The translations under genes were made by a program, and so were the position numbers. A DNA stretch of 14,130 nt from Planctomycetota bacterium (GTDB lineage: Bacteria; Planctomycetota; UBA11346), in NCBI GenBank assembly GCA_038213805.1, contig JBBQSO010000115.1, positions 1 through 14,130 of the forward strand, written 5' to 3'. Positions 5,558-12,539 of the stretch are shown piece after piece. Positions within the stretch are counted from its first letter, which is position 1. Every line of letters starts with the position of its first letter. The notes under the pieces were generated by a model, which saw nothing but the letters and a program-made list of their open reading frames with translations, was not told the DNA's origin and made no database searches.

Positions 5558-5569
5558 ATGGCGATGGGA

Positions 5570-5748
5570 GTGGCGAGGGGCGAGTGGCGAGTCGCGAGTC
5601 GCGAGCTGCGAGCTGCGAGCTGCGAGCTGCGAGACTCAAGACTGAGACAACAGCTCACTTGATGCGCACGTCGGGAGCGATTTTCTCGCCTCTCGCCTCT
5701 CGCCTCTCGCTGCTCGCTGCTCGCGACTCGAAACTCGCGACTCGTGAG
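5570..5748. repeat. Heptamer inverted-repeat module B between convergent genes
   Basis: Left arm 5570-5632: GTGGCGA, GGGGCGA, GTGGCGA, GTCGCGA x2, GCTGCGA x4; 53-nt spacer 5633-5685; right arm 5686-5748: TCGCCTC x3, TCGCTGC x2, TCGCGAC, TCGAAAC, TCGCGAC, TCGTGAG. Confidence 0.95.
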
Positions 5749-5754
5749 CGCAAA

Positions 5755-6936
5755 CTAATCGAGGGCCGGAAGATGGACGGTGAAGACCGTGCCGACGCCT
5801 TCGTGGGAGGCTACGCGGATCCAGCCGCCGTGGCTCTCGGCAATCTTCTTGCAGATGGCCAGACCGAGGCCCGAGCCGTCGTAGGTACCGCCGGTAAAGG
5901 CGCGCTGGAAGGCGCCGAAGATGCGCTCCTGATACGCTGGGGCGATGCCGATGCCGTTGTCGCGGACCGCCAGCACCCAGCCGGCGCCGTCGCGGGTCGC
6001 GGAGACGTGGACCACGGGCGGGCGCCCCGCGGCGCGGAACTTGAGGGCGTTGCCAATGAGGTTCTGCAGCAGCTGGAGGAGACGCGTGGCGTCGCCGCGC
6101 ACCATCGGCAACGCGTCGGCGGTGACCGTGCCGTGGGTCTCGGTGATGCGGCTGGTGAGGTTGTCGACCGCGGCCGCGAAGGCCTCGCCCAGGTCGACGG
6201 CTACCGCCTCGCCCTCCTCTCCGAGGCGGGCGTAGGCGAGCAGGTTGCCGATCAGCGCCTGCATGCGCGTGGTCCCGGCCATGGCGCGACCGATGTAGCC
6301 ACGTGCATCTTCGCCAAGCTGCCCGGCGCAGCGGTCCTCGAGCAGGGTCAGGAAGCCGGCCACCATGCGCAGCGGCTCCTGTAGGTCGTGACTGGCCACG
6401 GCGGCGAAGCGCTCGAGCTCGTGGTTGCTGGTCTCAAGCGCCGCGACCGCGTTGCGCAGCTCCTCCTCACCGCGCAGGCGGTCGGTGATGTCGCGCGTCG
6501 AGCCGGCGACCGCCTCCACCACGCCGTCCTCGGCCAGCACCGGGACGAAGATGTACTCGTAGTGGCGCGTACTGCCGTCCGGCCCGGTGAAAGGGGTCTG
6601 ATCGCGGACCTGCCCGCGCGTGGCGATGACCTCCTGGATTTGACGCTGCAGGCGCGCCGCCAGCTCGGTCGGATAACCAAGTTCGAAGAAGTCCCGCCCG
6701 ACGGCTTCCGCGAGGGGCTTCTGCCAGAGCATGAGCAGGGCCCGGTTGACATACAGAAAGCGGCCGTCGAGGTCGAAGATGTACGTGAAGTCGGGGGTGT
6801 GCGACAGCGCCGTGTCGAACAGCCGCCACTGCTTCCCGGTGCCGCGGGCGATGCGTGCGGTCTCTGGTCCGCGCAATCGCGTTGGGTGGAGCGCCGCCTG
6901 GTCAGCGGCGGGAATGGCAGCGGTGGGGTCCATCAT
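5755..6936 (-). CDS. Cytoplasmic PAS/PAC sensor histidine kinase (HisKA + HATPase)
   Basis: PAS region (YIFDLDGRFLYVN...AVAGSTRDIT), H-box ASHDLQEPLR, N-box NLIGNALKF, G1 DNGIGI, F-box IFGAFQR, G2 GSGLGLAICKKI. Start taken as ATG 6936 (or 6933); uncertain. Confidence 0.9.
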   Translation of the reverse strand: MMDPTAAIPAADQAALHPTRLRGPETARIARGTGKQWRLFDTALSHTPDFTYIFDLDGRFLYVNRALLMLWQKPLAEAVGRDFFELGYPTELAARLQRQIQEVIATRGQVRDQTPFTGPDGSTRHYEYIFVPVLAEDGVVEAVAGSTRDITDRLRGEEELRNAVAALETSNHELERFAAVASHDLQEPLRMVAGFLTLLEDRCAGQLGEDARGYIGRAMAGTTRMQALIGNLLAYARLGEEGEAVAVDLGEAFAAAVDNLTSRITETHGTVTADALPMVRGDATRLLQLLQNLIGNALKFRAAGRPPVVHVSATRDGAGWVLAVRDNGIGIAPAYQERIFGAFQRAFTGGTYDGSGLGLAICKKIAESHGGWIRVASHEGVGTVFTVHLPALD

Positions 6937-7036
6937 CGCCGCACTGATCCTGGACGGCACCGCGCCGCAGCCGACTGGCTGCCAGCGCGCTGCGCCACTA
7001 CCTGTGGACACAGCCCTGGGGCCACCCACCGCCCCA

Positions 7037-9056: not shown

Positions 9057-9136
9057 GTTGCGCGCCATGAGTCGCGAGTGAAGGCAGGCTGTCCTCGCGA
9101 CTCGCGACTCGCGACTCGCTGCCCGTAACTTGCAAC
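9057..9136. repeat. Heptamer inverted-repeat module C with conserved core
   Basis: Left GTTGCGC GCCATGA GTCGCGA (9057-9077); core GTGAAGGCAGGCTGTCC (9078-9094); right TCGCGAC x3, TCGCTGC, CCGTAAC, TTGCAAC (9095-9136). Lies 23 nt past the proA stop. Confidence 0.9.
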
Positions 9137-11533: not shown

Positions 11534-11540
11534 AGAGGGC

Positions 11541-11610
11541 TTCTCGCTTCTCGCTTCTCGCTTCTCGCTTCTCGCTTCTCGCTTCTCGCTTCTCGCTTCT
11601 CGCTTCTCGC
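11541..11610. repeat. Perfect heptamer microsatellite D, (TTCTCGC)x10
   Basis: Ten exact copies starting 8 nt after the permease stop. In the TCG-NNN-C phase the unit is TCGCTTC, reverse complement GAAGCGA. Confidence 0.97.
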
Positions 11611-11670
11611 TTGGGAGACGGAAACTGCAGCGATGGCGCGGGCATGTCGGGAATTCTTTGCGGTTGCGGG

Positions 11671-11821
11671 GTGTGCTCTCCTTCAGGAACCCCGATTGTC
11701 CCGAGCGTGCTCGCCGTCAAGGAGCTGCGGCTGCGCCTTCGCCCGCGGGGCGCGGCGGCCGGGGCGGCCGTCCTTGACCGCTGCGCGCGCTCTGGGGTGG
11801 GGTGAGGAAAGGAGAGCAGAC
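11671..11821 (+). promoter_or_regulatory. Predicted long hairpin leader sequestering the RBS of the four-helix-bundle gene
   Basis: Nested complementary pairs: TGCTCTCCTT 11674-11683 / AAGGAGAGCA 11809-11818; ACCCC 11689-11693 / GGGGT 11799-11803; GAGCGTGC 11703-11710 / GCGCGCTC 11785-11792; GTCAAGGA 11716-11723 / TCCTTGAC 11771-11778; GCTGCGCC 11730-11737 / GGCGCGGC 11749-11756 (some with G-U pairs). Confidence 0.65.
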
Positions 11822-12175
11822 ATGCCTCGATACGAGCGATTCAGGGTTTGGCATACGGCGCGGGAGGTGGTGAAGGAGGTACAGCTGGCTGCGGCGGAAT
11901 TCGGCGACTGCGGCGGAGGACTGACCAACCAGCTCCGGCGCGCGGCGATCTCCATCGCGTCCAATATCGCGGAGGGATCCGAGAAGACCTCCGACGCGGA
12001 ACTGCGGCGGTACTTCGCCATCGCGCGGGGATCCTGCGCGGAAGCGACCGCGCAGGTGACCATCGCGTACGATATGGGACTCGTGAACGAGGAGCGCTTC
12101 GTGACGCTCACGGACCGGCTGGACCACGTCGGTCGGATGCTCTCCGCCTTCATCACCCGCCTGGAAAGCGGGTGA
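11822..12175 (+). CDS. Four-helix-bundle protein (23S rRNA intervening-sequence protein family, structurally Avd-like), 117 aa
   Basis: Strong RBS AGGAAAGGAG before ATG 11822; hallmark motifs VW..A, GLTNQLRRAAISIASNIAEG and F.IARGS..E...Q..IA.D.G. Confidence 0.92.
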   Translation: MPRYERFRVWHTAREVVKEVQLAAAEFGDCGGGLTNQLRRAAISIASNIAEGSEKTSDAELRRYFAIARGSCAEATAQVTIAYDMGLVNEERFVTLTDRLDHVGRMLSAFITRLESG

Positions 12176-12199
12176 TTGGGGTGATCACCTACGACCTGA

Positions 12200-12487
12200 G
12201 TCACGAGTGGCGAGAAGCGAGAAGCGAGTGGCGAGTGGCGAGTCGCGAGGAAGACCGGCTGTCCTCGCGACTCGCGGCTCGAAACTCGCAGCTCATCGCA
12301 ACGTTGCGCGGAGTTAGCCACGAGTCGCGAGTCACGAGGAGGACCGGCTGTCCTCGCGACTCGCGACTCGAAGCTCGAAGCTCAACCCCTTCCGTTGCGC
12401 GAAACCAGCCACGAGCTGCGAGTCACGAGTTGCGAGCGCAGGCAGGCCGTCTTCGCGACTCGCGACTCGCAGCTCGAAACTGGTCAC
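12200..12487. repeat. Cluster E: three tandem heptamer inverted-repeat modules
   Basis: E1 12200-12292 (7 left units, core GGAAGACCGGCTGTCC, 4 right units); E2 12317-12381 (3 left, core GGAGGACCGGCTGTCC, 4 right); E3 12408-12480 (4 left, core GCGCAGGCAGGCCGTCT, 4 right). Both linkers contain CGTTGCGCG. Confidence 0.95.
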
Positions 12488-12539
12488 TCCATTGCACGTA
12501 AACACCTCGCGCCACGAACGACGTCAAGCGGCGAAGACG

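Follow-up and report, generated by a model that had tools for sequence, protein, structure and literature searches.

A PF05635 four-helix-bundle gene among intergenic heptamer repeats in Planctomycetota is preceded by a candidate single-strand DNA promoter

Intergenic heptamer repeats are scattered through the genome of a Planctomycetota bacterium, and at one locus a small gene for a four-helix-bundle protein stands among them. What is this gene doing there, and when is it expressed? The window analysed here, a stretch of 14,130 nucleotides (GCA_038213805.1, contig JBBQSO010000115.1), comes from a genome, G000, of 5.5 Mb with 69% GC that is 90% complete. The locus is a gap of ~1 kb between convergent protein genes, bounded by the stop codon of an ABC permease (PF00528; 11533) and that of a GT4 glycosyltransferase (12540). 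As the original prediction had it, the gap contains a heptamer array, a structured leader, a 117-aa gene and three hairpin modules. The array, (GCTTCTC)x10.6 at 11539-11612, is the pyrimidine-rich right arm of a repeat element that begins 6 nt 3' of the permease stop codon. It is followed by the leader, a long imperfect hairpin of 147 nt (11674-11820; fold z = -4.0 for the minus strand and -4.2 for the plus strand) whose minus (template) strand is a candidate fold-back single-stranded DNA (ssDNA) promoter, and then by the gene (11822-12175, plus strand). Repeat and fold analysis placed the three heptamer hairpin modules at 12198-12295, 12306-12386 and 12400-12490 (z = -4.8, -3.1 and -5.4); module 1 has a CGAG-core left arm, a short loop and a CTCG-core right arm, and module 2 keeps an 89-nt period with it. 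Contigs of the runs X1 and X2, which possibly represent the source sample, reproduce pieces of the cassette without differences, none of them spanning the whole.

Three gene-free elements occur elsewhere in the window, and comparison with the sister genomes G003 and G010 shows that such sites change. The first (2439-2605), of the same repeat family, follows an AraC gene and is not kept as such in either sister; the second (5559-5747) lies between convergent stop codons and is the same element with altered units in G010; the third (9057-9122), a short-loop module with a short left arm, is related to modules 1-3 and is absent from its site in G010. It had been proposed that the elements at 2439, 5570 and 9057 are recurrences of the element type that embeds the gene. 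They are indeed present and carry the same arms, but their spacers are unrelated, so they are not copies of one element. Nor is the gene embedded: the arms around it stand in reverse order, with polarity opposite to that of gene-free elements, and for this reason we place it between two elements rather than inside one. In two of the repeat families, right arms repeatedly carry the word GGCTGTCC at their inner edge, at 9092, 12262 and 12351 of the window and in CTAG-family elements. In G003 a histidine kinase gene is missing together with its adjoining repeat element (window 5559-7029), and the flanking genes there are 22 nt apart. The window held no long dispersed repeat pair of the template/variable kind found in diversity-generating retroelements (DGRs).

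The 117-aa product matched PF05635 (95.5 bits, cut-off 33.8) and TIGR02436 (92.7 bits, cut-off 24). Its only sequence match among solved structures was XCC0516 (2GSC; 37% identity), and a structure model (pLDDT 95.5) superposed on 2GSC with TM 0.94 and rmsd 1.1, on BT_0352 with TM 0.82 and on the DGR protein Avd (4DWL) with TM 0.82 at 11% identity, which bears out the fold shared with Avd that had been foreseen. The window protein matches PF05635 alone, and 17 of 46 homologues also match Pfam bAvd. We know of no catalytic residue pattern for this family. From the parts of the sources available, XCC0516 is a homopentamer (PMC4990558), PF05635 is linked to Avd and is frequently placed near DGR-like loci (PMC10053308), and genes of the PF05635 type appear in PMC5524665 in tables only.

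The window genome has five PF05635 genes. Those of the window, C6 and C9 have a common leader, which was found nowhere else in G000, and their proteins are merely 30-33% identical; the C19 and C29 paralogues lack a leader and are each enclosed by an arm pair of the normal kind, built of the two commonest units in the genome (207 and 138 arrays). The right arms of these two cassettes (C19, 6381-6405; C29, 26746-26773) lie in coding sequence, the former being the start of the next gene and the latter, in octamer units, the end of the protein itself. Because the protein tree has few columns and places the window protein on a long branch, we claim no single origin for leader-bearing genes. Named genome records with close leaders and genes are Planctomycetota. 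Many leader-type proteins end in a conserved Ser-Gly, which we considered as a DNA end signal, and at L008, L103 and L148 leader-type genes are paired tail to tail, each with its own leader. The single-contig genome G032 has 52 PF05635 matches, many with in-frame stop codons common to several copies; a covariance model of the leader found no match there. Among 72,556 plasmids, a PF05635-type protein was found on two non-mobilizable plasmids and on no conjugative one.

The leader offers the clearest indication of when the gene might be expressed. A covariance model was built from 29 leaders; it matched 9 of 41 relatives and 4 of 151 genomes across the phylum. In a structure derived from the same alignment, 9 of 19 consensus pairs change on both sides, a value reached in none of 500 shuffles. 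On the reverse strand, the 65 distinct leaders, which come from about ten related genomes, have the form TTGACG, 14 nt, (T/G)ANNNT-N-G. The first 15 positions, which include the -35 box, were largely set by the search pattern; A(-11), T(-7) and G(-5) lie outside it and are each kept in 63 of the 65, and positions 16-21, 23, 25 and 27 vary. These three are the letters that sigma-70 reads in the open complex. In the window the minus-strand boxes are TTGACG (11715-11720), on the arm that would become non-template in the fold-back, and GACAAT (11695-11700), 14 nt away, with positions -11 to -7 predicted to be unpaired. Folding of the minus strand as DNA left the -11 A unpaired in 57 leaders (mean p 0.96), with its neighbours paired. 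On the forward strand none of the 57 had xAxxxT at a spacer of 15-19; the window's TTGACC (11774-11779, plus strand), on the downstream arm, pairs with the -35 box and has no forward -10 after it. The covariance model gave nine further leaders in three more genomes (four read by eye), which keep the A and T at 14 or 15 nt; two of them, from a different family, read TTGACA with a spacer of 15 nt. The leader pattern had no matches in viral contigs. Nucleotide identities between leaders came from a gap-tolerant alignment that inflates them and served for ranking only. GC skew changed sign along contigs and did not assign leader-type genes to a replication strand.

Strand tests on the leader gave mixed results. 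DNA energies give the minus strand the better fold in 50 of 65 leaders, and likewise in eight of eight hand-cut F/pESBL regions; with RNA energies there is no strand preference (plus favoured in 29 of 65). The count of isolated wobble pairs points to the plus strand for the hairpin in full (115 vs 97, one invariant T.G among them) and to the minus strand only for its outer stem (88 vs 44). The window leader, with G at -12, folds slightly better as plus strand (-50.0 vs -47.3 kcal/mol). The leader might also be read as an RNA device, hiding the ribosome-binding site in read-through transcripts until opened or cut by RNase III or the protein, in the manner of an rRNA intervening sequence (IVS). 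We consider this explanation improbable. It would account for the Shine-Dalgarno AAGGAG (11809-11814, plus strand) being paired within the outer stem, for the plus-strand U.G pair that is invariant in 29 of 29 alignment rows, for the overall wobble count and for the 83% complementarity of the outer arms over 46 nt (11543-11588 and 12204-12249), and 19 of 30 scored leader-type genes do have a same-strand gene upstream from which read-through could come. A precedent is the Coxiella IVS, with heptamers before its S23p ORF, which is cut out by RNase III according to the available text of PMC4990558. However, it leaves unexplained the conserved -35/-10-like letters on the other strand, the presence of the leader core before antirestriction and ParB genes (see below) and the 11 of 30 copies whose upstream gene is divergent and which, for that reason, need a promoter of their own. 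Furthermore, the Rfam matches in the cassette and at related loci were hairpins below threshold, no family reaching its gathering score. The two roles are compatible, and dual use, as a promoter in minus-strand DNA and as a cover of the ribosome site in plus-strand RNA, would fit the mixed tests.

Relatives of the leader hairpin precede leading-type genes in other bacteria, one of them on a conjugative plasmid. Weak BLAST matches against plasmids (E 0.01-5) were intergenic hairpins before radC, on that kind of plasmid, and before an ATPase-ParB pair. The exact core pattern occurred in 116 stretches of GTDB genomes. Among the matches listed, 83 distinct hairpins in 80 loci, 35 precede PF05635-type genes, many of them in relatives already counted, and 24 precede genes for DUF932 (12), RadC (8), ArdC (2), antirestriction (1) or ParB (1), families that were checked on 20 representatives; a further 3 stand before other ORFs and 21 have no ORF called. 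A metagenome scan returned at least 127 distinct copies of the exact core. Among the 127 matches listed, 66 precede DUF932, RadC, ArdB, ArdC or ParB genes (61 with a 15-nt spacer), 7 precede PF05635-type genes (all with a 14-nt spacer), 17 are too short and 37 have no gene class; 30 of these 37 show no -10 at either spacing, 14 or 15 nt, and almost all of the 30 belong to a larger non-coding element. The latter, of ~300 nt and with multiple hairpins, carries the leader core at L084, L094, L096, L106, L126, L138 and L144 (Alphaproteobacteria) and at about 30 metagenomic loci; it has neither a -10-like box nor a consistent downstream gene, and four tested examples had no Rfam match.

A group of hairpins reads TTGACG-N15-TANNNT on the reverse strand (L075, L076, L078, L080, L092, L099, L121, L142, L158). 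They are uniform, often number several per locus, and stand before DUF932, RadC, ArdC, antirestriction and ParB genes; judged by their sequence, they are candidates for a further class of mobile-element ssDNA promoter. DUF932, ParB and antirestriction genes also make up part of the leading region of F. In the klcA/ardA hairpins of F and pESBL, as we read the boxes from the sequence, TTGCAT-N15-TAAGAT-GG occupies the same arm and the same A is unpaired, and the hairpin before the F/pESBL DNA methylase shares a short core with the leader in both arms. The Frpo and klcA promoters showed no sequence likeness to it, with local scores of 32-42 vs 80-89 for the mobile-element hairpins. Three classes of ssDNA promoter, namely Frpo/ssi (1), klcA/ardA (2) and M.EcoGIX (3), are described from plasmid leading regions (PMC12672017, PMC9849209, PMC11541004), and the available text of one report gives mapped start sites for six such promoters across the three (Wen et al., 2025; PMC12672017).

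From these features we strongly infer that the leader would serve as a fold-back promoter, as in the leading genes of conjugative elements; since it closely resembles the hairpins of plasmid 'first-entry' genes, the gene is probably expressed only from DNA in the single-stranded state. Among the points that count against this assignment, besides the mixed strand tests, the non-coding element without a -10 and the finding of the protein on no conjugative plasmid, the candidate spacer of 14 nt is short for sigma-70, for which 16-18 is the norm, and is one below that of klcA/ardA; the motif class also bears no likeness to Frpo and has no more than a short core in common with the hairpin before the F DNA methylase. 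Weighing both sides, we think it rather probable that the leader is an active single-strand promoter.

We propose the following model. In double-stranded DNA the gene would be quiet, because the leader boxes point away from it, because they are only 14 nt apart and because read-through RNA would conceal the ribosome-binding site. Once the minus strand is single-stranded, it would fold so that TTGACG and a -10 that is already open face the template arm, whereupon RNA polymerase would start just 5' of the Shine-Dalgarno, at about 11806-11810 by geometry. Such single strands would presumably arise from DNA uptake, conjugative transfer or gaps in replication and repair. More speculatively, the ensuing pulse of Avd-like protein would bind single-stranded heptamer arms and help host recombination to re-establish both cassette and arms. 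That the protein acts on the repeats at all is a tentative proposal, which we would put a little short of an even chance. The reading as a whole, a transposase-free passenger cassette that would be expressed from ssDNA and whose protein would act on the arms via host recombination, seems to us evenly poised between right and wrong. Its most far-reaching form, a transposase-free mobile system in which the chromosomal cassette senses its own single-stranded state by means of a fold-back promoter that conjugative elements also have, and a pulse of an Avd-like ring protein chaperones single-stranded heptamer arms into new sites through host recombination, is possible, if doubtful.

That the cassette moves can be seen in the sister genomes. 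In G003 the orthologues of the two flanking genes, permease and GT4 (90% identical), stand 134 nt apart and enclose a different heptamer hairpin and no gene, which is the cassette-free site in a relative that had been sought. Orthologues of the window protein occur at other sites in G003 (79% identity) and G010 (95%). For the C6 cassette, G010 has an empty site, with 11 nt between the aligned flanks vs 555 in the window genome and no clear target duplication; the site orthologous to that of C9 holds REP-like hairpins in G003 and a transposase gene in G010. Leader and gene thus form a ~500-bp cassette without an enzyme of its own that turns over among the gaps filled with repeats behind stop codons, which are hot spots with the cassette among their passengers. 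A cut-off left half of the leader lies beside hairpin modules like those of the window at about G000:C37 4070-4130, where G010 has a full cassette. In the last 300 nt of G000:C149, an ORF that resembles what we take to be a MazG-type protein follows a GATGGCT arm at a site where G003 has a leader cassette; this may represent a second type of cargo, or else a mis-join where the contig ends.

The repeats themselves are abundant and orderly. Arrays of (GNNNCGA)>=3 number 108 in the window genome vs 2 in one shuffle. By our own gene calls, 487 of its 532 period-7 arrays and 133 of its 178 period-8 arrays are intergenic, whereas the intergenic share is 56 of 428 for period 5 and 25 of 444 for period 6. 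The arrays sort into unit families, with hundreds of gene-free arm pairs of fixed polarity, and the arm that directly follows a stop codon is in nearly every case the first one (120:7, 36:9, 42:1, 29:2 and 14:0). Spacers between arms are mostly 40-180 nt and mutually unrelated; 119 of them yielded 31 BLAST pairs, which were almost all due to residual repeats or to small hairpins. An origin as MITEs or other non-autonomous transposons was rejected because the spacers are unrelated and the empty C6 site has no clear target duplication. An identical hairpin at two contig ends, G000:C41:54-132 and C90:19993-20071, contains part of the leader's downstream-arm motif, and no gene link was found for it. 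Genes other than PF05635 enclosed by CGRG arms 400-460 nt apart were sought in G022, G013, G006 and G003; only G003 gave candidate sites, and the two of five inspected there held nested hairpin repeats and no convincing gene.

Are the arrays tied to the gene family? Of 33 leader-type genes, 27 have an array upstream vs 324 of the 3756 genes of G000 (over slightly different distances, 400 vs 350 nt), and 23 of 38 have one downstream vs 375 of 3756, in agreement with the expectation that they would be commoner near four-helix-bundle genes. PF05635 was present in 23 of 41 relatives. Among family-level relatives, five or more matches of a CGRG array of five units were found in 13 of 14 genomes with the gene vs 3 of 11 without, the Fisher p of 0.002 being overstated because kin are not independent. 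Some genomes count against the association: G022 (79% complete), with very long CGAGCTT arrays (L242-L246) and 1311 pattern matches, yielded no family member by Pfam model or alignment. Arrays without a detected PF05635 gene were also present in G013 and G006, and G019 and G031 have the gene and no array within the sampled sequence. The further expectation that the repeat unit would co-vary with the protein failed for the leader type; near-identical leader-type proteins adjoin many different units, so there is no one-to-one pairing.

These observations could also be taken to mean that the protein has nothing to do with the repeats: the leader would have been captured from a conjugative element, the cassette would land in repeat gaps because they tolerate insertion, and the arms would spread by slippage and host recombination independently of the protein. 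The other passengers in the sister-genome gaps, the differing units beside near-identical proteins, the arrays without a detected gene in G022, G013 and G006, and the empty C6 site without a clean target duplication are all consistent with this. Against it, arrays of 7- or 8-mers occurred in samples of 16-100 kb from 9 of 11 genomes with the family vs 2 of 15 without, and the two commonest units of the window genome form the exact arms around the two leaderless paralogues. We regard this alternative as unlikely.

The original prediction had looked for a catalytic partner acting in trans. No trans-acting reverse transcriptase was found in the window genome, which gave no RVT_1 match. Four Y1-type transposase genes exceed the cut-off there (C48, C97, C11 and C70); these have their own palindromic REP-like flanks, similar hairpins being nested inside heptamer arms elsewhere. 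A ComEC-family gene is present in G000, and two short partial matches to the coupling-protein family PF10412 were not taken as a conjugation system. The RAYT/REP-like arrangement that had been suggested, a cognate Avd-like protein with a trans-acting reverse transcriptase or HUH nuclease copying non-autonomous elements, holds as far as the Avd-like fold, the hundreds of dispersed gene-free arm pairs of fixed polarity and the arrays near the gene are concerned, and it could draw on the Y1 genes and on a cassette cDNA that would be the promoter-forming strand, but it is very unlikely, since the spacers are unrelated, the units do not track the protein, a heptamer array lies within 1.2 kb of just one of five Y1 matches, and RVT_1 is absent from G000 (90% complete), G020 and G038, all with several PF05635 members, yet present in 12 of 18 genomes without the family, so reverse transcriptases do not track it.

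The findings tie together two open questions, the role of the PF05635 protein and the origin of intergenic heptamer repeats. Inverted heptamer pairs (GGGAATC) close behind stop codons are described in Xanthomonas (Rehm et al., 2015; PMC4692102) and TAACTGA heptamer arrays in Beggiatoaceae (PMC4679880); neither source, in the text available, mentions a four-helix-bundle or S23 gene. Like those of the window genome, these repeats are intergenic 7-mers, often in convergent pairs and close behind stop codons on the sense strand, with a function left unexplained; unlike them, G000 has several unit families and no G-quadruplex unit. In our search, which left subscription journals mostly outside its coverage, no publication was found linking PF05635 to genome-wide heptamer arms or to a single-strand promoter. 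A transposase-free single-strand-sensing system, if true, would explain bacterial intergenic 7-mer repeats and give PF05635 a function.

The closest known relatives of the protein are those of the Coxiella S23p IVS and XCC0516, with the same family and fold, heptamers beside the ORF and complementary outer arms. In Coxiella the heptamers stand before the ORF and, by the available text, the protein is apparently not produced in vivo (Warrier et al., 2016; PMC4990558). In contrast to a 23S rRNA IVS, the window cassette does not lie in rRNA, has its own 147-nt leader and carries arms with outward polarity. The DGR protein Avd shares its four-helix-bundle fold with the window protein; unlike a DGR, the window system has no reverse transcriptase, either in the window or detected in G000, and its protein matches only PF05635. 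RAYT/REP systems combine one gene, encoding a HUH nuclease, with many dispersed hairpin repeats after stop codons. The window system likewise pairs a gene with many such repeats, but the protein is of PF05635 rather than a HUH nuclease, and the repeats are tandem 7-mers around unrelated spacers.

The resemblance to ssDNA promoters is of another kind. The leader, like them, is a long imperfect hairpin directly before a gene, with its boxes on the reverse complement of the upstream arm and an unpaired -11 A, and its core precedes the same kinds of gene (antirestriction, DUF932, ParB) in other bacteria. In contrast to the plasmid promoters, the window cassette is chromosomal, multi-copy and 500 bp long, with no oriT or relaxase seen and a spacer of 14 vs 15 nt; its leader lies between housekeeping genes and not in the leading region of a conjugative element. 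The ssDNA promoters described to date belong to plasmid leading regions; multi-copy use on a chromosome would bring the device to a new kind of element. Many environmental genomes contain the mobile-element hairpin family, itself a candidate for a further class of ssDNA promoter. PF05635 is a large family in which structures have been solved and no function is known, and the leader provides a first clue to when its genes may be expressed.
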